Assembly (NCBI GenBank): GCA_021796215.1
Contig: JAJYOK010000011.1
Location: 4,747 to 68,746, forward strand
Source: Bacteroidota bacterium
Lineage (GTDB): Bacteria; Bacteroidota; Ignavibacteria; UBA10030; UBA8401
Direction of reading: 5' to 3'
DNA: 64,000 bases
Made by a program: the position numbers and the translations under genes. A model generated the notes under the pieces. That model was not told the origin of the DNA. It saw only the letters and a program-made list of their open reading frames with translations, and made no database searches. Positions 1,578-25,022 of this stretch are shown here, piece by piece (positions within the stretch are counted from its first letter, which is position 1; the number at the start of each line of letters is the position of its first letter).

Positions 1578-1610
1578 TTCCCGATAAAAACATTCGGGAA
1601 TGACGTACTT
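1578..1610. repeat. conserved 33-nt intergenic hairpin element, copy 1 (AGATTCCCGAyAAAAACATTCGGGAATrAC)
   Basis: Near-identical (2 mismatches) to 23282-23316. Inverted repeat TTCCCGA-N9-TCGGGAA. Lies about 20 nt downstream of the minus-strand gene at 1631. Confidence 0.55.
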
Positions 1611-1630
1611 CGTTTTTTTAACATGAATAA

Positions 1631-2431: not shown

Positions 2432-3243
2432 TCGCCGGGGTGATCCGCCTTCGACGAAAGACGCGTACAGCCGATGATACCGCGCTTGCTGCGTTCGATG
2501 AATGTAAGAAGGTTATTGATTTCCGGAGTGTGATTCAGTTCGGCGCGAATTTTTAGTGCGGCTTGGCTTACATTGAGCTTCGAAAGATAAAGTGTGTGAT
2601 ACGCTTGTGACAATGTATCAATCGTTTCCGCAGAAAATCCTCTTCTGCGAAGTCCGATGCGATTCAATCCTTCAAATGAAACCGGATTGCCGCCTGCGAG
2701 GATATACGGGGGAATATCCTTTGTTACACGAAAATGTCCGCCAACCATAACGTGCTGGCCGATGGAAACGAACTGATGAACTGCCGTGACACCGCCGATT
2801 ACCGCCCAGTCTTCTATCGTAACATGTCCGCCCATCTGGACTGCGTTCGCGATAATAACGTTGCTCCCGATAATGCAATCGTGCGCGACATGAACGTACG
2901 CCATCAACAGGCAATTGCTGCCAACAATTGATTTCATGTGTTCGGTAGTACCGCGGTTCAGCGTACAAAATTCCCGTACTGTCGTGTTGTCGCCGATCTC
3001 GAAAGTTGTTCTTTCATTTTTAAATTTCAGATCCTGCGGCATCGTTGCGACGACCGTGCCTTTGCTGATTGTGCAGTTCTTCCCGATTCGCGCACCGTCA
3101 GCGCAATACACATGCGGACCAATTGCCGTTCCGCTGCCGATGATAACATCATCTTCAATTACAGCATACGGACCAACGGTGACATTATCTCCTAATTCCG
3201 CTTTTTTGCCGATGATCGCTGTGGAATGAATGGTTGTATTCAT
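2428..3243 (-). CDS. lpxA: acyl-ACP--UDP-N-acetylglucosamine O-acyltransferase
   Basis: Hexapeptide-repeat LbH protein. True start taken at MNTTIHSTAIIG (ATG 3241-3243), 26 nt after the lpxC-fabZ stop. The track ORF extends upstream to 3348. Confidence 0.92.
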   Translation of the reverse strand: MNTTIHSTAIIGKKAELGDNVTVGPYAVIEDDVIIGSGTAIGPHVYCADGARIGKNCTISKGTVVATMPQDLKFKNERTTFEIGDNTTVREFCTLNRGTTEHMKSIVGSNCLLMAYVHVAHDCIIGSNVIIANAVQMGGHVTIEDWAVIGGVTAVHQFVSIGQHVMVGGHFRVTKDIPPYILAGGNPVSFEGLNRIGLRRRGFSAETIDTLSQAYHTLYLSKLNVSQAALKIRAELNHTPEINNLLTFIERSKRGIIGCTRLSSKADHPGD

Positions 3244-3268
3244 AGTATTCTGAAGAACAAAACGTGGG

Positions 3269-4687
3269 CTACTGAGCCGGTTTCTTTTCGGGACGGTCAA
3301 CGATTGTTGCAAGAAGTTCAGCTTCTGCGACAATTGCTCCGTCAACATACGCTTTTCCCTGCACTTGACAGACTTTCGACTTGCGGTACATCATTGTTAC
3401 TTCGTAGACAAGCTGGTCACCGGGTCCGACTGTTTTCCTGAACTTTGCATTGTTGATGCCGAGAAAATACACCAACTTTCCGTCATTTTCTTCCGAGCCG
3501 TCAAGCAGCAAAATGCCGCCGGCTTGTGCCATCCCTTCGATGATAAGCACGCCGGGCATCACCGGTGCACCGGGAAAATGTCCTTGAAAGAAATTTTCGT
3601 TGTATGTCACATTCTTCACGCCGACAATCTTTTCATTCGGCTGAAAATCAACGATCTTATCAACAAGAAGAAAAGGAAAGCGATGCGGCAAAATGCGCTG
3701 AAGAGCATTCACATCGAAAACAACGCCGGCTTTTTTCTCATGCTGATATTTCTTGATGATTTTTTTCTGCTGGTACAACTTGCGTACTTTACGTGCAAAC
3801 TCAACATTGTTCGCATGTCCCGGGCGCGCCGCAAGTATCTGTGCTTTCAACGGTGCACCGATCAGAGCGAGGTCGCCGATCAGGTCTAGTAATTTGTGGC
3901 GTGCAGGCTCATTTTTAAAATGCAATTGCCGGTTATTGACCACGCCGGTTTTTCCAAGAATCACCGAATCTTTTACGCCGAGCTTGTTTGTAAGATTTTT
4001 GAGTTCTTGCTCCGACAGTTCACGATCAACAATCACGATGGCATTATCAAGGTTGCCGCCCTTGATCAATCCGGCATCGCGCAGCTGTTCAACTTCATGC
4101 AAAAAACAAAATGTTCTGCACATCGCAAACTCAGAAACGAATTCTTTTTCGAGATCAAACAAGCCGGTATGCTGGCTTCCGAGCGCCGGATTATTATAAT
4201 CCACCATCACCGTCACGCGAAAGTCGTCTGTCGGCAGTGCAACAATTTCCACCCCTTTTTCTTCATTCTTGTATCCGATGGTTTGATCAATGACAAGATA
4301 ATCTTTTGGCGCATCCTGAATTTCGAAACCAACTTTCAACAACGCATCAACATACGGCTTCGCGCTCCCGTCGCCGATGGGCGGTTCAATGCCGTCAAGG
4401 TCAATAAGAATGTTGTCAATCTGAAGTCCTGCAACTGCCGCCAGCACATGCTCGACCGTGTGCACTTTCGCTTCACCAATGCCAATTGTTGTTCCGCGCG
4501 AAACATCAACCACGTGATCAACGATTGCAGGAATTTCCGGATCGCCTCCCAAATCAATGCGGCGGAAACGAATACCAAAATCAATCGGCGCAGGACGAAA
4601 CGTCATCGTGCATTGCGTACCGGTGTGAAGTCCGACACCGGAAAGTATAACAGGTTCTTTAATTGTTCTCTGCTGAACTAACATCAT
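3269..4687 (-). CDS. lpxC-fabZ: bifunctional UDP-3-O-acyl-GlcNAc deacetylase / 3-hydroxyacyl-ACP dehydratase (LpxC-FabZ fusion)
   Basis: 472 aa. N-terminal LpxC fold (ILSGVGLHTG, HTVEHVLAA) and C-terminal FabZ hot-dog (LPHRFPFLLVDKI, GHFPGAPVMPGVL). The fusion is typical of the FCB group. Confidence 0.95.
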   Translation of the reverse strand: MMLVQQRTIKEPVILSGVGLHTGTQCTMTFRPAPIDFGIRFRRIDLGGDPEIPAIVDHVVDVSRGTTIGIGEAKVHTVEHVLAAVAGLQIDNILIDLDGIEPPIGDGSAKPYVDALLKVGFEIQDAPKDYLVIDQTIGYKNEEKGVEIVALPTDDFRVTVMVDYNNPALGSQHTGLFDLEKEFVSEFAMCRTFCFLHEVEQLRDAGLIKGGNLDNAIVIVDRELSEQELKNLTNKLGVKDSVILGKTGVVNNRQLHFKNEPARHKLLDLIGDLALIGAPLKAQILAARPGHANNVEFARKVRKLYQQKKIIKKYQHEKKAGVVFDVNALQRILPHRFPFLLVDKIVDFQPNEKIVGVKNVTYNENFFQGHFPGAPVMPGVLIIEGMAQAGGILLLDGSEENDGKLVYFLGINNAKFRKTVGPGDQLVYEVTMMYRKSKVCQVQGKAYVDGAIVAEAELLATIVDRPEKKPAQ

Positions 4688-5772
4688 TCCTCCGAAAATT
4701 TCTTTTTTGTCGAAACAGGCTTCGCGGCAAGCCCGGCAATTTGTTCTTCAAGCTGCTTAATGCGTTCTTCAAGATTGCGTATCGTCCACAACAATTCCGG
4801 CAATTGCCGCAGTGCTCCCTCAATTCTTCTTCCGCGGCCGGCTTCTTTTGCCGGATAACCAAAATATGTTTTACCTTCCTCAAGCGAGCGTGTCACTCCG
4901 GAATGCCCTGCAATACTCACCTTATCGGCGACCGTAATGTGCCCTGTAATAGCAGCATTACCTCCAATCATTACATGATTGCCAATCTTTGTGCTTCCGG
5001 CAATTCCTGCTGTTCCCGCGATGACGGTGTCTTCTCCAACAACGACATTATGAGCGATTTGAACAAGATTATCAATCTTCGTTCCGCGCTTGATGTGTGT
5101 TTCCCCCATCGTTGCGCGGTCAACGCACGTGTTCGCCTGAATTTCCACATCGTCTTCAAGCACAACAATGCCGAGCTGCGGAATTTTCATATACGAGCCG
5201 TCTTTCTTCGGTGCAAATCCAAATCCATCCGCACCGATAACGGCGCCCGATTGAATGATGACGCGATTTCCAAGAACGCACGACTCACGAATCGTTACAT
5301 TCCCGTAGATCAAACAGTCGTTACCAATGCGAACAGAATTGCCAATAATCGTTCCGGGGAAAATTTTTGTGTTGTCGCCAACACTGCACTGCTCGCCGAA
5401 TACAACATACGGCCCAATGGCGCAGTTTTTTCCAATTTTCGTGCTCGCAGGAATAAGTGCTGTCGGATGTATGCCCGGCGGCACTAATGCTGGTGATGGA
5501 TTCAATTCTTGTAAAACAACCACGAATGACGCATACGCATCACCGACTTTAATGAGTGCGGGATGTTTGCTATGCATGGAAAGTTCGGCAGAGCGATTCA
5601 CGATGACGGCAGATGCGGCGGTCGTCTCAAGAAACTTTTCGTATTGGGGATTTGCGACAAAGCTTATGTCTCCGCTTTTTGCGTCTTCTATCTTTGCGAC
5701 ACCGGTGATGCTGATGTTTTCATCGCCGAGCACCTCGCCGTCAATCAATGCTGCAATCTCGCGGATAGTCAT
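4684..5772 (-). CDS. lpxD: UDP-3-O-(3-hydroxyacyl)glucosamine N-acyltransferase
   Basis: LbH hexapeptide repeats. Start taken at MTIREIAALI (ATG 5770-5772). ATGA overlap with the lpxC-fabZ start. About 45-aa C-terminal coiled-coil tail (KQLEEQIAGLAAK...). Confidence 0.9.
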   Translation of the reverse strand: MTIREIAALIDGEVLGDENISITGVAKIEDAKSGDISFVANPQYEKFLETTAASAVIVNRSAELSMHSKHPALIKVGDAYASFVVVLQELNPSPALVPPGIHPTALIPASTKIGKNCAIGPYVVFGEQCSVGDNTKIFPGTIIGNSVRIGNDCLIYGNVTIRESCVLGNRVIIQSGAVIGADGFGFAPKKDGSYMKIPQLGIVVLEDDVEIQANTCVDRATMGETHIKRGTKIDNLVQIAHNVVVGEDTVIAGTAGIAGSTKIGNHVMIGGNAAITGHITVADKVSIAGHSGVTRSLEEGKTYFGYPAKEAGRGRRIEGALRQLPELLWTIRNLEERIKQLEEQIAGLAAKPVSTKKKFSEE

Positions 5773-10353: not shown

Positions 10354-10730
10354 CTAGCTCAACTCCTTACAAATATAATTACCGCCGTTATCGGCGTAGA
10401 TATTAAAGTAACCTTTTAAGTGAAAAAAGTCAAGAAAATAGGCACATTTGAAGAGTTTTTTCATGCTTTCTTCAACAAAAACTGATGGAAAAATACACCG
10501 CCAGCGAATAAAGTCAAAAAATCCACAAAAGAGATTACAAGAGCCAAAAGACTTTCTTTTCCTTCTCGGTCAATTACAGAATTAGACGAACGAAAAGTAA
10601 AAATAGCGACCACAGCGACTATCATTCCGTTTGCTTATTTTAGATTCATCTCGTACACTTAAAGTTGAATCCATTACGCCGTGCTGAACTGACATTACCA
10701 ACATTGATCTTTCTTTCTCAACAAAAAAAA

Positions 10731-11735
10731 GTGAAATTGAAAATCCGCCGTGCTTTATCTTTTGGCGGAACGTGGATACCAATTCTCGCGCTGGTGCTAA
10801 GTTTTTATTCCGGCTGCAGTTTGGATGCGCCACACGACAACCCGTTAGATCCGCTTTCGCCAAAATTTGAGAATGCCGGAACTATCCAAGGAAGGGTCCT
10901 TAGCCTCGGCAGTTCAGGAATCGCAAACGCCGTCGTCAGTTTTACGACCAGCGGTATTGCCGCAATTACGGACAACAACGGAAATTTCTCAGCAGAACAT
11001 GTTTCCGCCGGTACCATGCTCATTACTGTAACAAAAGACGGATTTCTTCCCGACAGCATCTCGCTGCAACTCGCTGCCGGACAAACAACATCGCTCGAAA
11101 TTCATCTCGACGCACTTCCGCAGATTTCTGGACAGCAAATTATTACAAAGAAAACCGACCAATGGTGGCCCGGACCGACATACAGCGCAGTGGTCACTGC
11201 CAATATCACCGATCCTGATGGTCAGACAGACTTTGATACAGCGTTTGTCACTGTAGATTCTCTTCAATTTGGAATGACATATTCCAACAGTGATAAGAAT
11301 TTTCAAACGACAATTCTTGCCGACAGCCTTCCCACAGGCAACCTTCAGTGGCTGATTGGAAAGACGTTAACAGTTTTTGCGAAGGACAAAGAGCGTGCTT
11401 TAACACAGGGTAATGATTTTTACGTCTCAAGAATAATCGAAGCGACTGCAATCCCGACTTCGCCGACAACACAAGACACAGTACGGGATTCATTATATTT
11501 CCAATGGAATCCGCCGTCATTGACTTTTCCCTATACATTCACTATCAATCTTTACATGCTCAACAGCGGGACACCGCTGTGGACAGAATCAAATATCGTT
11601 CCTGCGCCGCCATTCGCGTTTACATTTCCGGGCTTTACCACACTACAGCCAGGCTCATACTATTGGACAGTCGCCGTAATTGATGAATTCGGAAACAGCG
11701 CCCGGTCAAAGGAGGCATCGTTCATCGTACCATGA
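10731..11735 (+). CDS. lipoprotein with carboxypeptidase-regulatory-like (CarbopepD_reg) domain
   Basis: Probable GTG start giving lipobox signal VKLKIRRALSFGGTWIPILALVLSFYSGC. CarbopepD_reg-like segment GTIQGRVL...ITDNNGNF...GTMLITVTKDGF. Stop overlaps the EBP start (ATGA). Confidence 0.5.
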   Translation: MKLKIRRALSFGGTWIPILALVLSFYSGCSLDAPHDNPLDPLSPKFENAGTIQGRVLSLGSSGIANAVVSFTTSGIAAITDNNGNFSAEHVSAGTMLITVTKDGFLPDSISLQLAAGQTTSLEIHLDALPQISGQQIITKKTDQWWPGPTYSAVVTANITDPDGQTDFDTAFVTVDSLQFGMTYSNSDKNFQTTILADSLPTGNLQWLIGKTLTVFAKDKERALTQGNDFYVSRIIEATAIPTSPTTQDTVRDSLYFQWNPPSLTFPYTFTINLYMLNSGTPLWTESNIVPAPPFAFTFPGFTTLQPGSYYWTVAVIDEFGNSARSKEASFIVP

Positions 11736-13231
11736 AAAAAACAGAAGAACACCCTGCAGTGCAAGATTCATTCGACGCATTGTATAACATCACGCAGAGC
11801 ATCAATTCCATTCTTGATCCGGAAGAATTGCTCGACAAGGTGCTCGAAATCGCAATGGAGCATCTTGATGCCGAGCGCGGTCTGATTCTGCTTAATAACA
11901 TCGAAAGCGAATTGGGATTCGACGTTGTCACCGCGAAGAACTTCACCGATACACATTCTTCCAGCAAACTTGCTGCGTCTTCTTCCGTCGTCAAGAAAGT
12001 ACTCTCTTCAGGCGAACCGGTGCTGACGTTCGATGCGCTTTCGGATGAACGATTCGAAGCGTCGCGCAGCATCGTTGCCCAGAAAATTCTTTCCATCATT
12101 TGCGTGCCGCTTCGGCAGATGGAACGGACCACCGGTGCACTGTATCTTGACACAACAAAAGCCCGCGGAAAATTCACGCAAGAAACTTTGAAATTTCTCG
12201 CAATCTTCGGACACCTTGCCGGTATCGCCATTGATAATGCGCGACGATACGATTCACTGCGTAAAGAAAACGAGCGGCTGAAAAATGAAGTCGGCTCCGC
12301 AACACTGCACGGCGAATTGATCGGACGAAGCAAAACATGGAAGGCAACGCTCGACCTCGTTATGCGCGTTGTTGATACCGACGCGTCCGTTCTTATCACC
12401 GGAGAAAGCGGCACTGGAAAAGAATTGATTGCCCGCGCAATCCATTTCAGCGGCAGACGGAAAGATAAACCGTTCATGGCAGTGAATTGTTCGGCAATTC
12501 CCGAACAGCTTCTCGAAAGTGAATTGTTCGGTTACAAAAAAGGCGCCTTCACCGGCGCGAGTGCGGATAAAATCGGACTGATCGAATATGCAAATGGCGG
12601 AACGCTTTTTCTTGATGAAGTCGGCGACCTCCCGGCTTCACTTCAGGCAAAGCTCCTGCGCGTGATTCAGGAGCGAGAAATCCGGCGAGTAGGCGATGTT
12701 CAGGATCGAAAAGTGGATGTAAGAATTGTTACTGCAACGAACAGGGATTTGGATGTAGAAATTAAAGAAGGAAAATTTCGCGACGACTTATATTTCCGGC
12801 TGAACGTCATCAGTATTCCGCTTGCTCCGCTGCGGGAACGCAAAGAAGATATTCCGCTTCTTGCACGTTATTTTATGGAGAAGGCTTCAACGGCACACAA
12901 ACGGCTGGTCAAGAACATCACGGCTGAAGCAATGGAAAAGTTGCTGAAACACCCGTGGCACGGCAACGCGCGCGAACTGCAAAATGTGATGGAGCGGGCT
13001 GTTGTGTTGTCGCGAGGCGAAGAGATTACGGAAGAAGATCTTCATCTTCAACTATTGACGGAAGAAGATCTTGTGCAAAGCGGTTTAACACTGGAAGAAT
13101 TCGAGCGGAAGCTCGTTGAGAAAACTCTTGTCGAGATGAACGATAATAGAACAAAAACAGCGGAGAAGTTAGGCGTTTCACTCCGCTGGCTGCAATATCG
13201 CCTGAAAGAATGGCATCGTGACACAAAATAA
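11732..13231 (+). CDS. sigma-54-dependent transcriptional activator (GAF domain, AAA+ sigma54-interaction domain, Fis-type HTH)
   Basis: GESGTGKE Walker A, ESELFGYKKGAFTGA (GAFTGA loop), arginine fingers, C-terminal HTH TKTAEKLGVSLRWLQYRL. N-terminal GAF-like domain. Confidence 0.9.
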   Translation: MKKTEEHPAVQDSFDALYNITQSINSILDPEELLDKVLEIAMEHLDAERGLILLNNIESELGFDVVTAKNFTDTHSSSKLAASSSVVKKVLSSGEPVLTFDALSDERFEASRSIVAQKILSIICVPLRQMERTTGALYLDTTKARGKFTQETLKFLAIFGHLAGIAIDNARRYDSLRKENERLKNEVGSATLHGELIGRSKTWKATLDLVMRVVDTDASVLITGESGTGKELIARAIHFSGRRKDKPFMAVNCSAIPEQLLESELFGYKKGAFTGASADKIGLIEYANGGTLFLDEVGDLPASLQAKLLRVIQEREIRRVGDVQDRKVDVRIVTATNRDLDVEIKEGKFRDDLYFRLNVISIPLAPLRERKEDIPLLARYFMEKASTAHKRLVKNITAEAMEKLLKHPWHGNARELQNVMERAVVLSRGEEITEEDLHLQLLTEEDLVQSGLTLEEFERKLVEKTLVEMNDNRTKTAEKLGVSLRWLQYRLKEWHRDTK

Positions 13232-14771
13232 TTTTACCATCATCGAAAAACTGAGCGAGGGACCGACTGCCATTGTTTTCAAGGCGCGGCAAAACGCACT
13301 TGAGCGGATCGTTCTGTTAAAAATGCTGCAACCGCATCTTGTGAAGGACAACGATGCCGCCGCGCGATTCATGCGCGAAGCGAAGGCGTGCGCCATATTG
13401 AAGTCGGAAAACATCGTGCAGGTATACGATGTGGCAGAATTTGAAAACTTACCTGCGATTGTTATGGAATTTGTAGACGGCACTCCGCTCGATGAGTTGT
13501 TGAAAACGCACGGTTCATTCGATGAAGCATTCTTACGGAAGACGGCGCAAGAAGTTCTCATTGCACTTGAAAATGCCCATGCGAACGGTGTGATTCATCG
13601 GGATATTAAGCCGGCAAATATTATTCTTTCAGACCGAAACATAATCAAAGTCACCGATTTCGGCATTGCCGCAGTGGCAAGCTCACCATCGTTGACGACT
13701 GAAGGAAATCTGATGGGAACGCCCGCGTATATGTCACCGGAGCAAGCGCGCGGAGAAACTGTTGACGAGCGGACCGATTTCTTTTCGCTCGGAGTTACGC
13801 TCATCGAACTTGCAACCGGTGAAAAAATCTTCGGCGGAAATTCGTACGCAGAATGCCTTCACAAAATTCTCGGCTTTGATGGAAAGCTTCCGGAACATTT
13901 CATGCCGAATACCTCTGTCAACTTCAAAACGTTTCTCTCAAAACTGATCACGCCAAATAAAGAGCATCGTTATACCACAGCAGCCGATGCACTGCAAGGA
14001 ATTTCTGGCACGAACACTCCCGCCTCCCAATCGAACGGAAAGCCGGTGAGATCGTATCGTAAAACTGCGATTCTTACATCAATTGCTGTTATCGCGATGG
14101 CAGCAGTAACAATTTTCTTTTCGAACCATCGAAAACAAACTGACAACGATTCGCCGACTGCCCATCCGGCAGCAGCGGCTTCGCAGAACAAAACAATCAA
14201 TACCGGCGAATCAAGCGAGCAAAAAAACGATTCGCCAAAAAATAATTTGCAGCCGTCAACTACACTGGATCATTTCCCTCAGCAATTGGAAATAAAAGAA
14301 AGTCCGGCTGTAAGCACGGCAGTTCCCATCGTAAAATCGGATTCCGGTTATCTTGCAATCACGTGCACGCCGTGGGGAAAAGTTTTTATTGACAGTCAAT
14401 ATATTGAAACGACGCCGATTGCCGGTACGGTCAGAGTGAGAAGCGGAACTCACGTTGTGACTTTTGTGAATCCCGATTTTGTTCCAATGATGAAAACGAT
14501 CACAATCAAAAAGAATACCCAAACTGCCGTGGATGCAAACTTTCTCGACAAAGCGGGTTATCTGTTTATCACGGCAGACCCTTGGGCAGACGTTTACATT
14601 GATGATCAGCACAGAGATACGACGCCGCTTTCTCACCCGATCATTACGTCAGCCGGTACGAGAAAAATTCGCTTACACAATCCGGCATTTAAGGACTATG
14701 AAACGATCATTACAGTGACCGCTCATGATACAGTGAAACTTAACTATTCTTTTGTTGTGGCGAAAAATTAG
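13218..14771 (+). CDS. serine/threonine protein kinase with TM segment and two C-terminal PEGA domains
   Basis: HRDIKPANI, DFG, SPE kinase motifs. TM helix AILTSIAVIAMAAVTIFF. Two PEGA-like repeats (CTPWGKVFIDSQ / ADPWADVYIDDQ). GTG start at 13218 overlaps the EBP stop by 14 nt. Confidence 0.85.
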   Translation: MTQNNFTIIEKLSEGPTAIVFKARQNALERIVLLKMLQPHLVKDNDAAARFMREAKACAILKSENIVQVYDVAEFENLPAIVMEFVDGTPLDELLKTHGSFDEAFLRKTAQEVLIALENAHANGVIHRDIKPANIILSDRNIIKVTDFGIAAVASSPSLTTEGNLMGTPAYMSPEQARGETVDERTDFFSLGVTLIELATGEKIFGGNSYAECLHKILGFDGKLPEHFMPNTSVNFKTFLSKLITPNKEHRYTTAADALQGISGTNTPASQSNGKPVRSYRKTAILTSIAVIAMAAVTIFFSNHRKQTDNDSPTAHPAAAASQNKTINTGESSEQKNDSPKNNLQPSTTLDHFPQQLEIKESPAVSTAVPIVKSDSGYLAITCTPWGKVFIDSQYIETTPIAGTVRVRSGTHVVTFVNPDFVPMMKTITIKKNTQTAVDANFLDKAGYLFITADPWADVYIDDQHRDTTPLSHPIITSAGTRKIRLHNPAFKDYETIITVTAHDTVKLNYSFVVAKN

Positions 14772-14808
14772 TTTTTCGGCACGAAGATTGTAGCATAATA
14801 TAGATAGA

Positions 14809-16113
14809 ATGAAAAAGAAAAAATCCATAGTGAACATTTTGGAACTTCCGGTCAGCATTCTTCTCCTGACATTTCTGCTGGTTTTACCTGTGTTTTCGCA
14901 GGTAAATGAGCAATTGTTCATGCCAACTCCTCGCTTCGGCATGTGTTCCGCACAGCTTGGAGATGTTATTTATCTTATCGGCGGAAGCACTAGTATAAGT
15001 GGTGAAAGCGAAGATGAAGTGCAAAATCTGCAGGTTTCTTCTGTGGTTGAAGCATTCAATCTGGATAGCTTGGTATGGTACACCAACATAGCGCATCTTA
15101 ACACTGCACGATTTTTTGCATGCAGCGCAGTCGCTGACAGCCAAATTTACGTGATGGGTGGAATGGATTCGAACGGTCATGCACTGAATTCTGTTGAAAG
15201 ATATGATCCGGTGCAAAATAAGTGGTCGTTCGTCGCATCAATGACCCAGTCCCGCCAAGGTGCGGCAGCCGTGACCGTAGGCGATTCAATTTATGTTTTC
15301 GGCGGCGCAAGTCATGGAAATTTGTTAGACGATGTTGAAGTGTATTCTGTTACAAACAATACGTGGACTATTCATCCTCAGATGATGACAGCACGCGCTT
15401 TCCATTTCGTTTTTCGTTATCGGAATATGATTTACATTATCGGTGGACTGAATCTGCTCGGTCCGTTGAAAGCGATTGAGCGTTACCCGCTGAATGGCAA
15501 TATGAACATGGGGTCGCTTTCGATGTATACTGCGCGAGTCAAATTCGGTGCTTTAGTCGTTCAAGACAGCCTGTTATTCATTATTTCCGGTATTGGCCCA
15601 ACAGGTGCGATCAGAGATGCCGAAGAGTTTCATGCAGATCGCGAAGCAACAACATTTGCTTCTTCAGTTTCAACAAACCTGCATTCTGCACGATTCGCAT
15701 TTATTGCAGCGATGGGAGCTAACAACAATACAATTTATCTTTTTGGCGGCTTATCACCTGATTATAAAAGCGGAAGCGCACCTGTTCCAGTTGTTGATCA
15801 AGTTTCTGCTGTCACTTCTGTCCCGAAATCTGATCCTCTAAATCCTATTAAATTTAGTATGAATCAAAATTTTCCAAACCCATTCAATCCGTCAACGAGA
15901 ATCACATTCGAAACGACGCAGGAAAATGAGCCGGTCAGATTGTCCGTCTTTAATATGATTGGGCAGGAGATACAAGTCCTTGTTGACAATCCGTTGCCGC
16001 GTGGCGAACACACAATCGAATTTAGCGGAAGCGAATTGCCAAGCGGAATTTATTTCTACCAACTCAGTTCTCCCGAAGGAACGTTGACGAAAAGGATGGT
16101 ATTGCTGAAATGA
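14809..16113 (+). CDS. Kelch-repeat protein with T9SS C-terminal sorting domain
   Basis: Signal peptide. Repeated IYxxGG/W Kelch blades. C-terminal NFPNPFNPST...GIYFYQLSS...MVLLK Por-secretion tail. Confidence 0.8.
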   Translation: MKKKKSIVNILELPVSILLLTFLLVLPVFSQVNEQLFMPTPRFGMCSAQLGDVIYLIGGSTSISGESEDEVQNLQVSSVVEAFNLDSLVWYTNIAHLNTARFFACSAVADSQIYVMGGMDSNGHALNSVERYDPVQNKWSFVASMTQSRQGAAAVTVGDSIYVFGGASHGNLLDDVEVYSVTNNTWTIHPQMMTARAFHFVFRYRNMIYIIGGLNLLGPLKAIERYPLNGNMNMGSLSMYTARVKFGALVVQDSLLFIISGIGPTGAIRDAEEFHADREATTFASSVSTNLHSARFAFIAAMGANNNTIYLFGGLSPDYKSGSAPVPVVDQVSAVTSVPKSDPLNPIKFSMNQNFPNPFNPSTRITFETTQENEPVRLSVFNMIGQEIQVLVDNPLPRGEHTIEFSGSELPSGIYFYQLSSPEGTLTKRMVLLK

Positions 16114-16886
16114 GTCTCACAGCACGAAGAACACTCGTAGTGCTGTTATTCATTTTCCTCAATCATGCGTACGGTCAAGTACCGGCGGCGCAAGATTCAA
16201 CTTTGCGTGCCATTGATACTCTTTTCACAAACGGGTCATATCTTTCTTCCGAACTTGAAGCGCGGCGTTTATTAGAAACTCCCGTCATCAGCGATTCTGT
16301 CAAAGCACAAGCGGAAAAGTACATCGCCTTTTCACTTGTTGCACAAGGGCAAAACGAAGCCGCGACTGAACATTTCATTTCTGCAATGAAATTGGATCCG
16401 GGATTTTCTCTCGATCCTGTTCTTACCTCTCCTAAAATTATGTCCGTTTACCGCGATGCGCGAGAACAATTCCGCATTCAACAATTGCAGCGACCGCCAA
16501 AAAATGAAAAGTCTATGCACGAAGAAGGCGGCGGACCAACATTGCGCGCTTTGATTTTCCCGGGATGGGAACAGATCTATCAAGGCAAAAGTGCGAAAGG
16601 ATATGTGCTGCTGGGAGCCGGTGTGATTTCGCTGGCTTCAACTTTGTATTTCGACCAGGTGCGAAAGGATAAACGTTCAAGTTATCTTGCCGCCGCCACG
16701 CCCGTAGAAGCTTCGGCACGTTATTCAAATTATAATTCAGCTTATAAAGCTGAATACTATTCTGCCGCTATCTTTGGAATTATTTACGTTTACTCAACCC
16801 TCGATGCATTTATTCCGCTTCCTCCTCAGTTTGATCTTTCCATTTCACCCTTCTCTTCCTCCCTTTCATTCAGCTATTCATGGTAA
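16110..16886 (+). CDS. DUF5683-like membrane protein (signal peptide, TPR-like N-region, two TM helices)
   Basis: ATGA overlap with the Kelch gene. C-terminal module LIFPGWEQIYQGK...LDAFIP is paralogous to the ORF at 57165-57797 (IPGAGQIYNG...LDAYVDA). Confidence 0.5.
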   Translation: MSLTARRTLVVLLFIFLNHAYGQVPAAQDSTLRAIDTLFTNGSYLSSELEARRLLETPVISDSVKAQAEKYIAFSLVAQGQNEAATEHFISAMKLDPGFSLDPVLTSPKIMSVYRDAREQFRIQQLQRPPKNEKSMHEEGGGPTLRALIFPGWEQIYQGKSAKGYVLLGAGVISLASTLYFDQVRKDKRSSYLAAATPVEASARYSNYNSAYKAEYYSAAIFGIIYVYSTLDAFIPLPPQFDLSISPFSSSLSFSYSW

Positions 16887-16907
16887 CGCGCAAAAGATGC
16901 GTGCTAT

Positions 16908-16924
16908 TCTGCAAGTCCTGCAGA
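16908..16924 (+). promoter_or_regulatory. 17-bp palindrome TCTGCAAGtCCTGCAGA, candidate EBP enhancer (UAS)
   Basis: 7/8 inverted repeat centred on 16916, 64-80 nt upstream of the sigma54 -24 element. Confidence 0.35.
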
Positions 16925-16986: not shown

Positions 16987-17001
16987 TGGCACGGAGCTTG
17001 C
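16987..17001 (+). promoter_or_regulatory. sigma-54 (RpoN) promoter, -24/-12 elements
   Basis: TGGCACGgagcTTGC matches the consensus TGGCACG-N4-TTGCW exactly in both conserved dinucleotides (GG 16988-16989, GC 17000-17001) and spacing. About 52 nt upstream of the ATG at 17054, which has a good SD (AAGGAGA). Confidence 0.65.
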
Positions 17002-17053
17002 GGTTACTTACCCTAGTAACTAACATATCAAACATTATAAGGAGAGAAAAATC

Positions 17054-19399
17054 ATGAAAAGAAAGTTACTTGCAGTTGTCTCGACTACGGTACTTGCACT
17101 TCTGGTGGGCGTTGCCGCGGCATCAGCTCAAATGCATCCGGATTTCTTTTTGAATGCAAAACTTCAGTCCGATGGACATGTAAATTTGGAGTGGACTGCG
17201 CCAACAGGCGTGACTGTAAATTCATACATCGTGTATCGTGCAGATCTTGCCGTACCATACATGTCAGCAATGCCTGTCAACTTTGTTGCGATAGACACGA
17301 CACACGACACAAGTTACAGTGATTTTCCGCATTCCAGCTTTAGCGACTCGGCTTTCTTTGCGTATTATGTTTCCGCTCAAATAGATAGCGGAATGTCGTT
17401 ACGAAGTAATGTCGCAGTAATTAATAACTCAAGCTACGGCGGAGGAGAAGAAGATCACATAACGATCACCTCAACTCCAGTAACAAGCGGACAAATCGGT
17501 GTTGAATATACATATCAAGTCGTCGCACATTCTTCTGATTCTACTGCCACGCTTATGTATCGCCTTGACGATCATCCCTCCGGAATGAATATTGATTCCA
17601 CAGGATTCATTACATGGACGCCGATGCAACACGGCTGGTATGAAGTTGAAGTAGAAGTCAAATCAGACAAAGGCGGAGAAGCAGGGCAGCATTTCATGAT
17701 TCGTGTCGGTGCCGGCAATGGTACTGTTGCAGGAACAATTACAGATTCTTTAGGCAATCCGATTCGCCATGTGATGGTACAGCTCTTTCAACGCACACAA
17801 AATGAGCCTTTCGAATATTCTGCCATTACCGATTCCATCGGAACATACTCGGTTGACAAACTTGACTCGGGCACATATTTCGCCCGCGCGATTCCTCTTC
17901 GTTACGACTATTTACCGCAATGGTACAATGGCGCACAAAGTCGTACCGATGCCACACCAATCAACGTCGCTGATAATGCAACAACGACCGTCAACTTTAC
18001 ATTACAGGCGCGGGCAGCCGTTCTTCCGACATTCACCGTGCAAGGAATGGTTACCGATTCAGCAAACGCAGCAATCTCGAACGCGGCAGTATTTTTTGTG
18101 AGCGCAGGATTCGCATTAAATTCTCATGGAGACATCAGTAATCTTCATTGGTTCGACCGCGGAGACATTCAGGAAATGTTCGAGCACCATAACGAGGACA
18201 GCAGTAGGGATCATGATTTCAGCCTGGAAGGAAACTCGCGCTTCGTAACAAAAGCTAACGTCGACGCTTCCGGCAAATATTCCGCCACATTAACTCAAGG
18301 CTCGTATATTGCTTTTGCAGTTGCACCGGGTTACCAGCGGGTATTCTTCAACGGACAAAGCGATCCTCTTTCAGCAAATGTGATTGTGGTGAATTCAGAC
18401 ACAGCGGGAATCAATTTTGTCATGGCACCAAATCCGCCGCTCGTGCTCGGACAAATTAACGGATCGGTAATTGATTCCACAACCGGCACCGGAGCTGCTG
18501 CACGCATCATTGCGTATCGCGACCGCTGGACACATCCGGATACGATTATGGCGCCGCACACATTCTCCACAGATGCAGATTCAACCGGCAATTATTCATT
18601 GGCTGATTTGCCGCCGGGAGATTACATCGTCTTTGCAGTGCCGCTCGGCAATTATGTTCCGTCGTTCTACAGCACATCCGGGTCAACGCTTCACTGGAAG
18701 AATGCAACAAAAGTAACAGTCAACGGAACGACCGTCGCCGGAATCAACATCTATGTAAAGCCGCTGGTGAATCCTGCTCTCGGCTACACATCGGTGTATG
18801 GACAAATAACTGTCAACATCAACGCATCAGCGAGTTTGCAAAAAGCCGATGTGACCGCCGCTCTTTCAGGCGGAGTTGTGTACGCTCTCGATGCGAACGG
18901 TAATGTTGCAGGATACGGTTTTACAACATCAACAGGCAGTTACACGATTGTTGACCTTGCGCCGGGCACCTATACGGTCTCGACAGAAGCGCCGGGTTAC
19001 GACTCCGGCTCTTCCACAGCATCGCCAACATACGATGCGTCCGGAAATCCGCAGCCGGCAAACGCTTCCTACAGCGTGAATTCTCTTACGTTGGTCGGCA
19101 ATAACAACGGGCTGCAACCGAGCGGTTACGCGCTTGAACAAAATTATCCGAATCCGTTCAACCCGTCAACGCAAATTGTGTTCAGCATTCCGCAAGATCA
19201 ACGTGTAACGATAGCAGTTTTCAACATTCTCGGACAAAAAGTTGCCACGCTTCTTGATCGCACGCTCAGAGCAGGAACACATGTTGTGACATGGGCTGGC
19301 AAAGATGACAACGGATTTACTGCCCCATCCGGTGTCTATCTTTATAGAATTTCGACAGCAAACTTTACGGCAGTAAAAAAGATGATGCTGTTGAAGTAA
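17054..19399 (+). CDS. large secreted T9SS cargo protein with multiple CarbopepD_reg/Ig-like domains and C-terminal sorting domain
   Basis: 781 aa. Signal peptide (LLVGVAAASAQ). Repeated GxVxD..G.P..A.V...TDs.GtY modules. C-terminal NYPNPFNPSTQIVF...GVYLYRIST...MMLLK. Confidence 0.8.
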   Translation: MKRKLLAVVSTTVLALLVGVAAASAQMHPDFFLNAKLQSDGHVNLEWTAPTGVTVNSYIVYRADLAVPYMSAMPVNFVAIDTTHDTSYSDFPHSSFSDSAFFAYYVSAQIDSGMSLRSNVAVINNSSYGGGEEDHITITSTPVTSGQIGVEYTYQVVAHSSDSTATLMYRLDDHPSGMNIDSTGFITWTPMQHGWYEVEVEVKSDKGGEAGQHFMIRVGAGNGTVAGTITDSLGNPIRHVMVQLFQRTQNEPFEYSAITDSIGTYSVDKLDSGTYFARAIPLRYDYLPQWYNGAQSRTDATPINVADNATTTVNFTLQARAAVLPTFTVQGMVTDSANAAISNAAVFFVSAGFALNSHGDISNLHWFDRGDIQEMFEHHNEDSSRDHDFSLEGNSRFVTKANVDASGKYSATLTQGSYIAFAVAPGYQRVFFNGQSDPLSANVIVVNSDTAGINFVMAPNPPLVLGQINGSVIDSTTGTGAAARIIAYRDRWTHPDTIMAPHTFSTDADSTGNYSLADLPPGDYIVFAVPLGNYVPSFYSTSGSTLHWKNATKVTVNGTTVAGINIYVKPLVNPALGYTSVYGQITVNINASASLQKADVTAALSGGVVYALDANGNVAGYGFTTSTGSYTIVDLAPGTYTVSTEAPGYDSGSSTASPTYDASGNPQPANASYSVNSLTLVGNNNGLQPSGYALEQNYPNPFNPSTQIVFSIPQDQRVTIAVFNILGQKVATLLDRTLRAGTHVVTWAGKDDNGFTAPSGVYLYRISTANFTAVKKMMLLK

Positions 19400-23432: not shown

Positions 23433-25022
23433 TTACTTCAACAGAATCATTTGCTTCGATTCTGTAAAGCTTCCGGCGCGCACTGTGTAGAAGTACATTC
23501 CTGAACCGAGTTTGCTTCCGTCAAATTGCACTTCGTACGTTCCCGGTGCTTTTCGTTCATTCACCAGTGTTGCCACTTCTCTTCCCAGCACATCATAAAC
23601 TTTCAGTACCACATTCTGACTGCCGGCTACTGAATACTGAATACTCGTTGAGGGATTGAATGGATTAGGATAATTCTGTCCAAGAGAAAATTTCAGCGGC
23701 TGCACGCGCTGTTGATCTGCCACACCCGTTGTCGTGATGTTAATGATCACTCCCGTATCGCCCGGATGAGCCGTGACATCCGGAAAATTGTATTGAGTTG
23801 TCGTTTGGAAATTTTCTACAATCCGATAATTGAAAATCTTGTTGCTCACTGGTATCGAGAAATTACCTGTTCCGCTGTCGCACCATGTAGATGCCTGTGC
23901 AGTATCCTGATTTTGCGCCATTAGTTGAATCGGGAAACCGGGAGCGTTTCCATCAATCTCAACTTTTCCTTGTATTGAAGAATTGACGCTGTAGATGACC
24001 AAATGCTTAAACACGCTGTCTCCTGCGGCAAGCGACGGTACTTGTGCAACTGCATCAAGGAGCGAGCCGGTTTGTCCATTATTATTTTGTTCATACACCT
24101 GAAGTGTCCACGCCGTTCCCGCAATCAAGTCCGAGCTTTGCGCGCCGATGAGGAAAAGCCCGTTGACATCGGTTCTTCCGCCATACTGAATATTCGAACC
24201 GCTATTGTCATTTCTAAATAACTCAACATCCTGACCCACAACCGCGGCTCCATTTTCATCTTTCACAGTTCCATCTACCTGAGCAGCGGCGGCAACGATG
24301 GAAAAATTAATGCTCGACAGATTACCGTTAATAATGATATCCTGTTCGCCCGGAGTAACAATAGCAGGGGCAAACGGATTATTGCTGACGCGGACTTTCC
24401 ACGGATTTCCTGCAGTATCTGCGTCCATCTCAATTGTATAATTACCGTTCCCATCAGCATGTCCAACCCAAAAGGGATTATTGTTTTTTCCACTGCTTGG
24501 CTCTGCTTGGACAAGAAGGTCTGCCGGATTTTTGCCTGACGGCACCGTTACGGTGCCAGAGATGGTATGAGCGGGAGAGGATAAATGATTTACAAATCCG
24601 CTCACACTATCAGTTACACCACCTTCTGTAAATTTCAATATATAGGGTCCCGGCGCAAGTCCGATCGGCGAGCTGAAGAAAACCGCACCGTTTACTGTGC
24701 CATCCATATCGGGCGGACCGCCATTTCCATTTGTATCACCGTCCGCTTGTGTAAAACTCTGCCAAAGAATATAATGATTAGCGGAATTTATTGCGTTTGC
24801 TTCAACCAAGTACCAAAGCTCTACTGTGGCACTGGCTCCATTGGGAGAAACGTTGTAACTCCATGTTACCGTATCTCCTGATGTCACCGTAAAACTCGTA
24901 GAAGAGCCATTCACTTTCAAATTGGAAATCTGCGCTGAAGATTTCATCGGGAAAATCACCAACGCAAAAAAGCACAACAATGGGATAAGGCTCCACCGTC
25001 GTAACAAAAAACGAGACTTCAT
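23433..25022 (-). CDS. secreted protein with T9SS C-terminal sorting domain (hypothetical)
   Basis: Start at MKSRFLLRRWSLIPLLCFFALVIF (ATG 25022). C-terminal NYPNPFNPSTSIQY...GMYFYTVRAG...MILLK. Confidence 0.75.
   Translation of the reverse strand: MKSRFLLRRWSLIPLLCFFALVIFPMKSSAQISNLKVNGSSTSFTVTSGDTVTWSYNVSPNGASATVELWYLVEANAINSANHYILWQSFTQADGDTNGNGGPPDMDGTVNGAVFFSSPIGLAPGPYILKFTEGGVTDSVSGFVNHLSSPAHTISGTVTVPSGKNPADLLVQAEPSSGKNNNPFWVGHADGNGNYTIEMDADTAGNPWKVRVSNNPFAPAIVTPGEQDIIINGNLSSINFSIVAAAAQVDGTVKDENGAAVVGQDVELFRNDNSGSNIQYGGRTDVNGLFLIGAQSSDLIAGTAWTLQVYEQNNNGQTGSLLDAVAQVPSLAAGDSVFKHLVIYSVNSSIQGKVEIDGNAPGFPIQLMAQNQDTAQASTWCDSGTGNFSIPVSNKIFNYRIVENFQTTTQYNFPDVTAHPGDTGVIINITTTGVADQQRVQPLKFSLGQNYPNPFNPSTSIQYSVAGSQNVVLKVYDVLGREVATLVNERKAPGTYEVQFDGSKLGSGMYFYTVRAGSFTESKQMILLK

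Follow-up and report, generated by a model that had tools for sequence, protein, structure and literature searches.

In the 64,000-nucleotide stretch of DNA analysed here (the window; Table 1), a sigma-54 activator that turns on adjacent genes for exported surface proteins appears to take its input from a eukaryote-like kinase and not from a histidine kinase. Our preferred reading, which we regard as evenly balanced between right and wrong, is that this Hanks-type Ser/Thr kinase serves a self-contained four-gene envelope-signalling module as its transmembrane sensor, feeding the sigma-54 enhancer-binding protein (EBP) of that module.

Table 1. Positions of the module genes, their parts and the candidate regulatory sites in the window (nucleotides)
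Feature	Position	Strand	Basis or remark
Lipoprotein-like CarboxypepD_reg protein, first gene of the regulatory operon	10665..11735	+	Pfam E 1e-12
Sigma-54 enhancer-binding protein (EBP)	11732..13231	+	Pfam, alignment; stop TAA 13229-13231
EBP, GAF	~11813-12235
EBP, AAA+	12317-12817
EBP, lid	12833-13066
EBP, HTH_8	13088-13213
Ser83-Ser84-Ser85 patch of the EBP GAF domain	11978..11986	+	candidate phospho-acceptor
Kinase-start/EBP-end overlap, 14 nt	13218..13231	+	sequence
Hanks-type Ser/Thr kinase	13218..14771	+	GTG start, 517 aa; Pfam, alignment, AF2
Kinase domain	13236-13985
TM helix	14055-14126
Disordered Ser/Pro/Gln/Asn-rich spacer	14127-14342
PEGA-1	14343-14540
PEGA-2	14553-14750
Sigma-54-like -24/-12 site	14777..14792	+	CGGCACGAAGATTGTA; 6 nt past kinase stop, 17 nt before Kelch ATG
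Kelch beta-propeller protein with T9SS C-terminal sorting domain	14809..16113	+	Kelch_1 E 6e-39, Por_Secre_tail E 5e-9
Single palindrome inside Kelch gene	15020..15032	+	TGCAAAATCTGCA; possible downstream enhancer element
Unk258, unnamed conserved membrane protein	16110..16886	+	alignment, AF2 model
Candidate enhancer (UAS), two 13-bp palindromes	16889..16922	+	CGCAAAAGATGCG 16889-16901, TGCAAGTCCTGCA 16910-16922
Sigma-54 -24/-12 promoter	16987..17002	+	TGGCACGGAGCTTGCG; pattern match, conserved
781-aa T9SS-exported surface protein	17054..19399	+	Pfam CarboxypepD_reg x3, He_PIG, SdrD_B, Por_Secre_tail

The NCBI/ENA record gives an identical 517-aa kinase product with the identical start, and the N-termini of orthologues begin at the same codon in the alignment, with MTQ(N/D)(N/S)F conserved. 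A homologue search returned more than 100 full-length orthologues (38-80% identity), so the reading frame is not a chance one. Pfam assigned residues 7-256 to Pkinase (PF00069; E 1e-49, 169.6 bits against a curated cut-off of 31.7) and two further stretches to PEGA (PF08308; E 6e-15 and 55.3 bits against 20.8 with the whole kinase, E 1e-16 and 61.1 bits with the ectodomain alone). The protein has one strongly hydrophobic segment, at about residues 283-301. The AF2 model (mean pLDDT 79.5) comprises a kinase fold (1-265), a helix (280-303), disorder (306-373) and, C-terminal to the sole TM helix, two all-beta beta-sandwiches (376-441 and 446-511, pLDDT >90). Profile scores above cut-off, the predicted beta-sandwich fold and the predicted location outside the membrane thus point to true PEGA domains; no solved structure was detectable by sequence for this region. 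The initial annotation had called a single TM helix and two extracytoplasmic PEGA repeats; the hydrophobic segment and the AF2 helix bear out the first, and Pfam together with the structure prediction suggested there as a check bears out the second. The PASTA kinase model for Stk1/PknB (NF033483) scored 261.7, below its cut-off of 450, and the protein gave no PASTA match.

The catalytic motifs can be read directly from the sequence (K35, E54, HRDIKPAN 127-134, DFG 147-149 and SPE 173-175), and the HRD, DFG and SPE motifs, annotated as intact, are so. The beta3 Lys (K35), alphaC Glu (E54), HRD Asp (D129) and DFG Asp (D147) are present in 36/36 orthologues, and H127, R128, K131, N134, F148, G149, T160, T168, E175, D187, R251 and an RF motif are likewise invariant in the 36 kinase sequences aligned. 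T160 lies in the activation loop and presumably corresponds to PknB T171. The glycine loop (S13-E-G15-P-T-A18) does not fit the canonical GxGxxG. The family consensus is S-E-S-x-T-T, most members having no glycine there, and the G2 column of the family alignment holds Ser in 28/35 and Gly in 7/35; distant PEGA-kinases are near-canonical (GRGGFS in locus L027, AxGGM in L004 and L013). The degenerate loop thus looks like a family trait, a departure within the family and not a loss of the fold. The concern raised in the initial annotation, that loop degeneracy inactivates the enzyme, holds for the degeneracy itself; inactivation is argued against by the K, E, HRD, N, DFG and APE elements, which are wholly invariant beside it. 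A pseudokinase call in the bacterial kinase atlas needs loss of the VAIK-Lys, HRD-Asp or DFG-Asp (bioRxiv 10.1101/2025.01.12.632604), and by these standards the sequence is that of a canonical kinase.

In the EBP, Pfam detected GAF, Sigma54_activat (243 bits), AAA_lid_14 and HTH_8 (residues 453-494) and no REC domain, in agreement with the initial annotation. Alignment showed Walker A and Walker B (GESGTGKE, GTLFLDEV) and GAFTGA (KKGAFTGA) to be intact, which, with the C-terminal HTH_8, marks the protein as a sigma-54 activator. No module gene encodes a HisKA/HATPase_c kinase or a REC domain of the two-component type. Neither an FHA domain nor a PP2C phosphatase was found in the module or the scanned parts of the window; FHA occurs only in the distant L027 pair. 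The EBP scored 398.8 with the NifA equivalog TIGR01817 (cut-off 528.85), and no nif genes were found in the scanned parts of the window. It had been proposed that EBP relatives might carry a REC domain in place of GAF; in a search with the AAA+-HTH part alone, however, GAF-type EBPs ranked first, and REC types appeared only from about 50% identity, so that among the nearest relatives the proposal finds no confirmation. The GAF region as sole query returned 14 fragments and was uninformative. In all module-type EBPs (alignments of 16 module EBPs and the nearest representatives) an S-x-[S/T] patch is invariant and takes the place of the usual GAF G-x-G-x-x-G segment, where the outgroup P0304 has GEGVIG. 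This patch may be a phospho-acceptor.

The GTG start of the kinase gene was correctly placed inside the end of the EBP gene, with an overlap of 14 nt, and an SD-like AAGGA sits within the conserved EBP codons K-E-W. The conclusion drawn from this, obligate co-translation, was overstated, because the junction is not constant and other phyla arrange the genes differently. Among the 12 close loci the overlap is 14 nt in seven and 8 nt in two, the others having 1 nt or 0 nt, with a gap of 123 nt in L110; in L004 and L013 the order is kinase-Unk-lipoprotein-EBP.

The association of the two genes is nonetheless conserved. Kinase and EBP occur together in all 17 PEGA-kinase loci with enough flanking sequence, which belong to at least three phylum-level groups (Kryptoniota-like, Gemmatimonadota, WOR-3 and unclassified); they are neighbours in the 11 close loci and P0037, and then in L001, L002, L003, L004, L005 and L013. 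By comparison, an EBP was nearby in 1/79 generic kinase loci. This background set came from a metagenome scan with the kinase alignment, whose patterns lacked specificity and brought up ordinary kinases; their loci were reused for the linkage comparison. The initial annotation had held that orthologues mostly unlinked to EBPs would refute the connection; the observed linkage is clearly the opposite of that condition. Gene order is lipoprotein-EBP-kinase-(Kelch)-Unk-big T9SS protein in each of the 12 close loci (window, L019-L026, L107-L110, P0037), which lie in different surroundings (BamA/UppS, flagellin-FliS-FliD, ornithine decarboxylase, MacB, GH38, UvrB). The module genes are also linked in L002 (Gemmatimonadota) and in L003 and L005 (WOR-3), and, reordered, in L004 and L013. 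Four genes make up the invariant core: those of the CarboxypepD_reg lipoprotein, the GAF-EBP and the PEGA-kinase, and that of a membrane protein of the TPR-plus-two-helix type. In L027, an independent parallel, a distant PEGA-kinase adjoins an EBP of the FHA type, whose sensor domain reads phosphothreonine.

The lipoprotein has a lipobox-like ..FYSGC on reading of its sequence, and its gene overlaps the EBP ATG by 4 nt at the stop. Its true start is probably GTG 10731, because homologues in ten loci are of 316-343 aa and the L019 gene call agrees; the gene call in L022 is of 241 aa. Its gene is the immediate neighbour of the EBP gene in every close locus, as well as in L002, L004, L005 and L013. 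The fourth protein, Unk258, carries a signal peptide and a helical, TPR-like domain in which LDPVLTSPKI is invariant; it further has an FPGWEQxYQG motif, a two-helix membrane hairpin with a conserved Tyr/Ser-rich tip, and a C-terminal beta-hairpin (AF2 pLDDT 80.8; TPR-like fold matches weak, E ~0.05). It has 389 homologues; among the 120 matches listed all source names are 'hypothetical' and only two have a Pfam match, to PF27626. Unk258 scored below threshold as TssQ (33.6 against 65), and all matches to DUF5683 and Leptospira families were below threshold too. Its gene adjoins the kinase gene, or follows Kelch, in 16/17 loci, with no match found in L005; in Kelch-less loci it lies directly 3′ of the kinase gene and overlaps it.

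The palindromes of the candidate enhancer begin 3 nt past the Unk258 stop and are 21 bp apart. TGCA-N5-TGCA pairs spaced 19-21 bp were found in 8/11 close loci with one mismatch allowed; the first palindromes in the window and L019, which are more degenerate, were picked out by eye, and in L108 only one site was found. In the close loci a sigma-54 promoter follows 63-85 bp after the tandem palindromes, ahead of the large T9SS-exported protein. In the window it lies 77 bp past the second palindrome and 52 nt before the ATG at 17054, with the SD AAGGAGAG between. The pattern TGGCAC-N5-TTGCW with at most one mismatch has two sites in the 64 kb, this being one of them, and by our own calculation a chance rate of about 0.006 per 170-bp region; an equivalent was found by pattern in 10/11 loci, with the variant TGGTAC in L107. 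These sites have the arrangement expected of a cognate -24/-12 promoter and upstream enhancer, and we infer that they belong to this EBP.

In every close locus the gene of the 781-aa protein, probably the main target, is kept downstream of enhancer and promoter; locus L002 has the gene of a 1670-aa T9SS protein in its stead, behind AGGCACACAAATTGC. The Por_Secre_tail of the 781-aa protein scored 32.3 bits (cut-off 27), and the sorting domain of the Kelch protein 36.7 bits with Pfam and 39.8 bits with TIGR04183, so that both proteins are predicted cargo of type IX secretion with a type A C-terminal domain. The Kelch gene is an optional, lineage-specific insert of the module, absent from L025, L026, L107-L110 and P0037. 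The site at 14777 is a candidate promoter for Kelch-Unk258, held with lower confidence than that at 16987: it has TTGT instead of TTGC and would leave a 5′ UTR of about 6 nt. It occurs at the same place in 6/6 Kelch loci (window, L019, L020, L022, L024, L003), and loci that have no Kelch gene lack it. No tandem palindromes were present upstream of it, in the 3′ end of the kinase gene; a palindrome like the one inside the Kelch gene lies +210 to +243 bp from the post-kinase site in 5/5 Kryptoniota-type Kelch loci. No sigma-54 site was found upstream of the lipoprotein gene in the close loci, and autoregulation of the module is therefore not supported; four of these loci have a sigma-70-like CTTGATTT...(G/T)ATAAA(A/C)T instead. 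We could not locate rpoN in the window. The four-gene core, the sigma-54 promoters, the enhancer and the T9SS cargo targets had not figured in the initial annotation.

We propose that the two periplasmic PEGA beta-sandwiches sense a periplasmic or cell-surface cue, probably joined by the lipoprotein and the TPR membrane protein, and that the cytoplasmic kinase domain would then autophosphorylate its activation loop (at the invariant T160) and signal to the EBP, whose gene immediately precedes its own. Most likely it would phosphorylate either the GAF domain, with S83-x-S85 as candidate, or the linker between GAF and AAA+, which would lift GAF repression of the AAA+ ring. The active EBP would bind the tandem enhancer and drive sigma-54 transcription from 16987 into the gene of the 781-aa protein, and probably also from 14777 into Kelch-Unk258. 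Direct phosphorylation of the EBP is plausible, and we know of no precedent for an STK phosphorylating the GAF domain of an EBP. Literature searches found neither such a case nor any STK-GAF-EBP or PEGA-kinase-sigma-54 link, and no published description of the module. The failure to find an FHA domain, a PP2C phosphatase or rpoN, and the scarcity of glycines in the kinase loop of most members, also weigh against the proposal. Observed here are the architecture, the conserved linkage, the invariant catalytic residues and the conserved promoter and enhancer; the nature of the signal and the step from kinase to EBP are the proposed part. Homotypic recognition between the PEGA ectodomain and the CarboxypepD_reg domains of the lipoprotein or big target gave BLASTP E values of 0.18 and 0.023 over short stretches, and is therefore without sequence support.

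Since the usual partners of GAF domains are small ligands, regulation of the EBP might not need the kinase at all. A small ligand would then control the EBP through GAF, and the kinase, within the same functional unit, would phosphorylate something else, such as the conserved tip, on the cytoplasmic side, of the Unk258 hairpin (RSSYLAAATPVEASARYSNYNSAYKAEYYS) or components of the envelope or of T9SS. We think this rather unlikely, although the GAF-type EBPs NifA and FhlA are under ligand or partner control, as is NorR (PMC2941729). The Unk258 gene follows and overlaps that of the kinase in Kelch-less loci, and a conserved helical hairpin rich in Tyr/Ser/Thr lies between its two membrane helices. 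Such parallel inputs, however, leave unexplained why kinase and EBP adjoin in every locus, even across changes of gene order, and why a PEGA-kinase pairs with an FHA-EBP in L027; moreover, the canonical G-x-G-x-x-G of GAF is replaced in module EBPs.

It is improbable, in our judgement, that the kinase is a stoichiometric partner which acts on the EBP mainly by binding, sequestering it at the membrane or releasing it, with phosphotransfer not the signal and the degenerate glycine loop reflecting altered or lost use of ATP. Coupled translation makes the nifL-nifA products in fixed ratio, and overlaps of 14, 8 and 1 nt would suit the same here; among solved full-length proteins the nearest to the EBP is a NifA (9qq6), and most members have no glycine in the loop. 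But all residues needed for catalysis and for control of the activation loop stay unchanged across the 36 sequences (38-80% identity), whereas in pseudokinase families of bacteria the Lys or an Asp is missing (bioRxiv 10.1101/2025.01.12.632604). Coupling is also lost in L110 and in the L004/L013 order, and the distant members have near-canonical loops. Short overlaps are frequent in compact bacterial operons, but that this one is a packing accident and that kinase and EBP are mere neighbours with unrelated jobs is very hard to believe: linkage holds in 17/17 loci from at least three phylum-level groups, although the flanks and even the gene order change, against 1/79 for generic kinases.

A bolder version of our preferred reading, which we consider possible but doubtful, is that the Hanks kinase replaces a histidine kinase and that GAF, through S-x-[S/T], serves as the phospho-accepting 'receiver' of the sigma-54 activator. 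This two-component-like pathway would be widespread in the FCB group (Kryptoniota-like, Gemmatimonadota, WOR-3), the lipoprotein and the new TPR membrane protein forming a periplasmic sensing complex that tunes T9SS surface proteins.

The module resembles several known systems in part. Jelsbak and colleagues reportedly proposed in 2005 that FHA-domain EBPs of Myxococcus xanthus are under Hanks-type kinase control, which likewise couples a receiver-less sigma-54 activator to Ser/Thr phosphorylation with no histidine kinase; L027 is exactly of this type, and its kinase also has PEGA. Unlike these, the window EBP has GAF, hence no known phosphothreonine reader, and its kinase is a dedicated co-operonic partner in a four-gene core with an identifiable local regulon. 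Sigma-54 has been described as a controller of the bacterial exterior, with GAF on about 10% of EBPs (Francke et al. 2011, PMC3162934). The inferred regulon of exported cell-surface proteins fits that picture; the survey does not mention Ser/Thr kinases or FHA with EBPs (no FHA matches, both threonine matches unrelated). With NifL-NifA the module shares the GAF-AAA+-HTH_8 architecture (NifA is the best NCBIfam model), a sensor partner in the same operon, coupled translation and, as proposed here, regulation through GAF. It differs in the sub-threshold NifA score, the lack of nif genes, a transmembrane Hanks kinase in place of the cytoplasmic PAS/histidine-kinase-like anti-activator NifL, and T9SS surface proteins as targets. 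As in NtrB/NtrC, sensor kinase and EBP share one operon and a paired-palindrome enhancer precedes a -24/-12 promoter, and REC-type EBPs are about 50% identical in AAA+-HTH; the module, however, has no histidine kinase, receiver domain or Asp acceptor. PknB/Stk1 and PpkA-TagQRST (type VI secretion) are also built on a single-pass Hanks kinase with an extracytoplasmic, envelope-monitoring sensor domain, and PpkA has an outer-membrane lipoprotein and accessory proteins in the periplasm as its partners, a parallel to the module. Their sensor domains are PASTA or vWA instead of PEGA, and their output is cell-wall enzymes or Fha1 instead of a sigma-54 activator.

The usual picture of Hanks kinases in bacteria is one of pleiotropy, in which few have a transcription factor as dedicated partner, and the switches generally assumed for EBPs are receiver domains, small ligands or anti-activators. 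The module described here is a clean and phylogenetically broad circuit of one kinase, one activator and one enhancer. All its parts (sensor ectodomain, accessory proteins, activator, binding sites, promoter and target genes) can be read from sequence, which makes the kinase-to-EBP step directly testable. It also gives a context to the 389-member Unk258 family, and would be the first regulatory handle on how these lineages, most of them uncultured, express T9SS-exported surface proteins.

The initial annotation had described a Ser/Thr kinase with one transmembrane helix and two PEGA repeats, whose GTG start lies inside the gene of the upstream sigma-54 activator (enhancer-binding protein, EBP), and all of these particulars were borne out by Pfam, the structural model and the sequence. 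Pfam matches Pkinase to residues 7-256 (E 1e-49) and PEGA to two stretches, and a single strongly hydrophobic segment lies at ~283-301. In the AlphaFold2 model (36 orthologues as input; mean pLDDT 79.5) residues 1-265 form a kinase fold and 280-303 a helix, followed by a disordered, Ser/Pro/Gln/Asn-rich stretch (306-373) and two beta-sandwiches with pLDDT >90 (376-441 and 446-511). Alignment showed that the N-terminus is kept from the GTG codon onward in orthologues. Since the EBP stop codon occupies 13229-13231 and the kinase begins at 13218, the two genes overlap by 14 nt. Among 12 close loci the overlap is 14 nt in seven, 8 nt in two, 1 nt in one and 0 nt in one, while locus L110 has a gap of 123 nt; GTG is the kinase start codon in 8 of 11 loci, and an SD-like AAGGA lies within conserved EBP K-E-W codons, 8-10 nt ahead of the start. 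These features make coupled translation of the EBP and kinase, conserved in the window's lineage, likely; the coupling is not the obligate one first proposed, given the gap in L110 and its absence with the gene order of other phyla.

Full-length kinase-PEGA orthologues number >100, mainly from MAGs labelled Kryptoniota or Bacteroidota. We compared the contexts of ten of them, picked by available sequence length alone, and of six loci obtained by scanning species-representative genomes. All 12 close loci (window, L019-L026, L107-L110, P0037) share one gene order: a CarboxypepD_reg lipoprotein, the GAF-type EBP, the PEGA-kinase, an optional Kelch/T9SS protein, an unnamed protein of ~265 aa (Unk258), and a T9SS-exported CarboxypepD_reg-repeat protein of ~670-870 aa. 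The outer flanks vary by locus (BamA/UppS, flagellin-FliS-FliD, ornithine decarboxylase, MacB transporter, GH38, UvrB); the gene block therefore travels as a unit. The same order is found on a Gemmatimonadota chromosome (L002), a WOR-3 MAG (L003) has EBP-kinase-Kelch-Unk258, loci L004 and L013 have kinase-Unk258-lipoprotein-EBP and then an unrelated FTCD gene, and L005 has kinase, lipoprotein and EBP in this sequence, with no match to Unk258 found there. Judged by the gene sets kept across close loci and other phyla, the invariant core is lipoprotein, EBP, kinase and Unk258. Several relatives (L020-L024; ~1200-5400 in each) have the module directly 3' of flagellin-FliS-FliD plus a pair of small unknown genes, whereas the window module comes after UppS/BamA. 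Given this lack of conservation, the flagellar genes are probably not linked to the module by function.

As a control we used 80 kinase loci, mostly of ordinary kinases, from a metagenome scan with too generic patterns; an EBP was within the flanks in only two. One of these, L027, is itself a PEGA-kinase locus, whose kinase (a zinc-ribbon and two PEGA domains) adjoins an FHA-Sigma54_activat-HTH_8 protein and is followed by a gene for a PEGA plus NHL propeller protein; the locus also encodes a 138-aa protein resembling the threonyl-tRNA synthetase editing domain. A PEGA-kinase beside an EBP of the phosphothreonine-reading (FHA) type gives independent support to the idea that such kinases signal to the adjacent activator.

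Features of the module, its surroundings and its distant analogue (window coordinates unless a locus is named)
Feature	Position	Strand	Basis or remark
EBP ORF, just upstream of kinase	11732..13231 (TAA stop 13229-13231)	+	sequence
PEGA-kinase ORF, 517 aa, GTG start	13218..14771	+	sequence; identical GTG-start product in NCBI/ENA
Glycine-rich loop S-E-G-P-T-A, kinase residues 13-18	13254-13271	+	sequence, kinase alignment A1
Second -24/-12-like site CGGCACGAAGATTGTA	14777	+	just after kinase stop
Palindrome inside Kelch gene	15020-15032; L019 9785; L020 ~9795; L022 ~9828; L024 9862
Unk258	16110-16886	+	389-protein family
Candidate enhancer palindromes CGCAAAAGATGCG, TGCAAGTCCTGCA	16889-16901, 16910-16922	+	sequence
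Putative sigma-54 promoter TGGCACGGAGCTTGCG	16987-17002	+	intergenic; orientation right; <=1 mismatch
PorV-like outer-membrane protein, 570 aa	20168-21880		29.1 bits vs cut-off 27
Further CarboxypepD_reg protein with T9SS sorting tail	23433-25058	-	domain content
Two adjacent paralogues, HGSNAT-type acyltransferase catalytic domain	28380-29525, 29586-30779	-	domain matches
Module analogue: FHA-EBP, ThrRS-editing-like protein, kinase, PEGA+NHL protein	L027 4681-10869

A search of the window for TGGCAC-N5-TTGCW, allowing at most 2 mismatches, yielded a total no higher than in shuffled sequence (45 observed versus 38 expected), and only two sites had at most one mismatch. One of them, TGGCACGGAGCTTGCG, lies 52 nt ahead of the start codon (ATG) for a T9SS protein of 781 aa, the inferred main target, with AAGGAGAG between. 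The other, TGGCGCGGTGATTGCT, is on the minus strand at 52399-52414, within the gene of a MacB-like permease (51292-52509), and probably arose by chance. By pattern, a -24/-12 site is present in the equivalent intergenic region of 10 of 11 loci, against a chance expectation, by our own calculation, of ~0.006 per region; L107 carries a TGGTAC variant. Directly 3' of the Unk258 stop, 8 of 11 loci have two TGCA-N5-TGCA-like palindromes (one mismatch allowed) whose starts are 19-21 bp apart, the second lying 63-85 bp upstream of the sigma-54 site; the first one in the window and L019 is more degenerate and was called by eye, and in L108 only one was found after the stop. As read from sequence, palindromes and -24/-12 site are arranged as enhancer and promoter classically are at EBP-dependent genes, and because this layout is found with the EBP everywhere, we infer that the candidate enhancer belongs to the module EBP.

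In the five Kelch-bearing close loci (window, L019, L020, L022, L024) a second -24/-12-like site begins 0-6 nt past the kinase stop, and in the WOR-3 locus L003 it lies ~75 nt past the stop; it is absent in loci without Kelch. We hold this putative promoter at lower confidence, since no tandem enhancer lies upstream and CGGCACGAAGATTGTA would give a leader of only ~6 nt in the window. A single TGCA-N5-TGCA palindrome within the Kelch coding region, +210 to +243 bp downstream of the site in 5 of 5 Kryptoniota-type loci, could be a downstream enhancer or reflect coding constraint. The Gemmatimonadota locus seems to have retained the regulators and exchanged the cargo: the gene behind the sigma-54-like site (L002 10831-15903) codes for a T9SS protein of 1670 aa that combines BNR/sortilin, cohesin, dockerin and CarboxypepD_reg domains. 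The lipoprotein gene (CarboxypepD_reg domain, lipobox-like FYSGC) has its longest ORF from TTG 10665; the in-frame GTG 10731 is the more probable start, judging by the lengths of homologues and by how the gene is called in L019. Upstream of this gene no sigma-54 site was found in the close loci, and a sigma-70-like element (CTTGATTT, ~17 nt, then (G/T)ATAAA(A/C)T) is common to L020, L024, L107 and L109; the module regulators therefore appear to be made constitutively.

The PorV-like and T9SS-tailed genes just downstream of the module make the neighbourhood T9SS-rich beyond the conserved block. Further on, the first acyltransferase gene seems to overlap an RmuC gene call by ~100 nt, which suggests a mis-set start.

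We propose, with about an even chance of being right, that the kinase would sense an envelope cue through PEGA and partners, autophosphorylate, and then activate the EBP by phosphorylating its GAF domain or linker, and that the activated EBP would drive sigma-54 transcription of T9SS surface proteins. The EBP has GAF, Sigma54_activat, AAA_lid_14 and HTH_8 domains, an intact GAFTGA and, by Pfam, no receiver domain. Its best model is NifA, yet under the cut-off (398.8 versus 528.85), and NifA (9qq6) is its best-scoring full-length solved relative, two structures spanning only the AAA+-HTH part scoring slightly higher. The suggestion that relatives might carry REC instead of GAF did not hold for the nearest ones. 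In a search of 1.8 billion representative proteins with an AAA+-HTH-only query, which takes no account of the N-terminal domain, the top single-stretch matches all have GAF at the same position (P0262, 71% identity; P0280, P0282, P0283 and P0288, 52-54%) and are similar to the module EBPs found in other phyla (L002 matching best, at 47-55% identity), with REC-type EBPs turning up from ~50% identity onward. In all module-type EBPs S-x-[S/T] replaces the usual GAF G-x-G-x-x-G segment (GEGVIG in outgroup P0304); the window EBP reads A-A-S83-S84-S85-V, and the serine patch is a candidate acceptor site, nothing more.

Alternatively, a small ligand might be bound by GAF and the kinase might have a different substrate, for instance the hairpin of Unk258, a reading we consider rather unlikely. 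Unk258 (alignment and AF2 model, pLDDT 80.8) begins with a signal peptide, followed by a TPR-like domain of four helices in which LDPVLTSPKI is invariant and by a variable linker. An FPGWEQxYQG motif then runs into a long hairpin of two helices; the hydrophobic halves of this hairpin resemble a pair of membrane spans, and its tip has conserved Tyr, Ser, Thr and Pro. A short beta-hairpin ends the protein. Among the 120 of 389 relatives listed, every source name given is 'hypothetical' and the sole Pfam match, PF27626, occurs in only two. Matches to TssQ, DUF5683 and two Leptospira families were all below threshold. In our preferred model, co-conservation suggests that the lipoprotein and Unk258 may be periplasmic partners of the PEGA ectodomain; in sequence, the ectodomain is not significantly similar to either the lipoprotein or the target protein.

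In kinase alignment A1 (36 full-length orthologues, 35-80% identity) K35, E54, H127-R128-D129, K131, N134 and D147-F148-G149 are invariant, as are the bacterial RF motif R50-F51, T160, T168, E175, D187 and R251; T160 aligns with the PknB activation-loop phospho-site T171, PknB serving for positioning only. The doubt raised initially about the glycine loop is justified as to sequence: in most relatives the loop reads S-E-S-x-T-T, and just 7 of 35 sequences have Gly in the G2 column. The loop is near-canonical in more distant module kinases, GRGGFS in L027 and AxGGM in L004 and L013, and glycines are lost stepwise through SSGAQA (L003) and SRSSTT (L002) to SESxTT (most Kryptoniota-type). Such loss beside otherwise invariant catalytic residues is unusual for a presumably active kinase; it belongs to the family as a whole and is no defect peculiar to the window kinase. 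A bacterial Ser/Thr kinase atlas calls pseudokinases by loss of VAIK-Lys, HRD-Asp or DFG-Asp (bioRxiv 10.1101/2025.01.12.632604), and by that standard the kinase is canonical; we regard it as catalytically competent, though its nucleotide-binding loop is unusual. Control of the EBP by NifL-like stoichiometric binding would suit the coupled translation and the odd glycine loop, but the invariant catalytic residues speak against it, and we think it improbable. Mere adjacency of kinase and EBP is contradicted by the conservation of their linkage and is hardly credible.

Control of transcription factors by Ser/Thr kinases is known, and it has long been proposed that kinases target the FHA-type EBPs of Myxococcus. 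A role of sigma-54 in controlling the cell exterior was noted earlier (PMC3162934), and a 2018 review of bacterial Hanks kinases leaves EBPs, sigma-54, NtrC and GAF all unmentioned (PMC6213207). Our literature search found no description of a dedicated Hanks-kinase/GAF-EBP module, a PEGA-kinase-sigma-54 linkage or the Unk258 family. The value of the module is that the whole proposed circuit is readable from sequence, and hence open to test.
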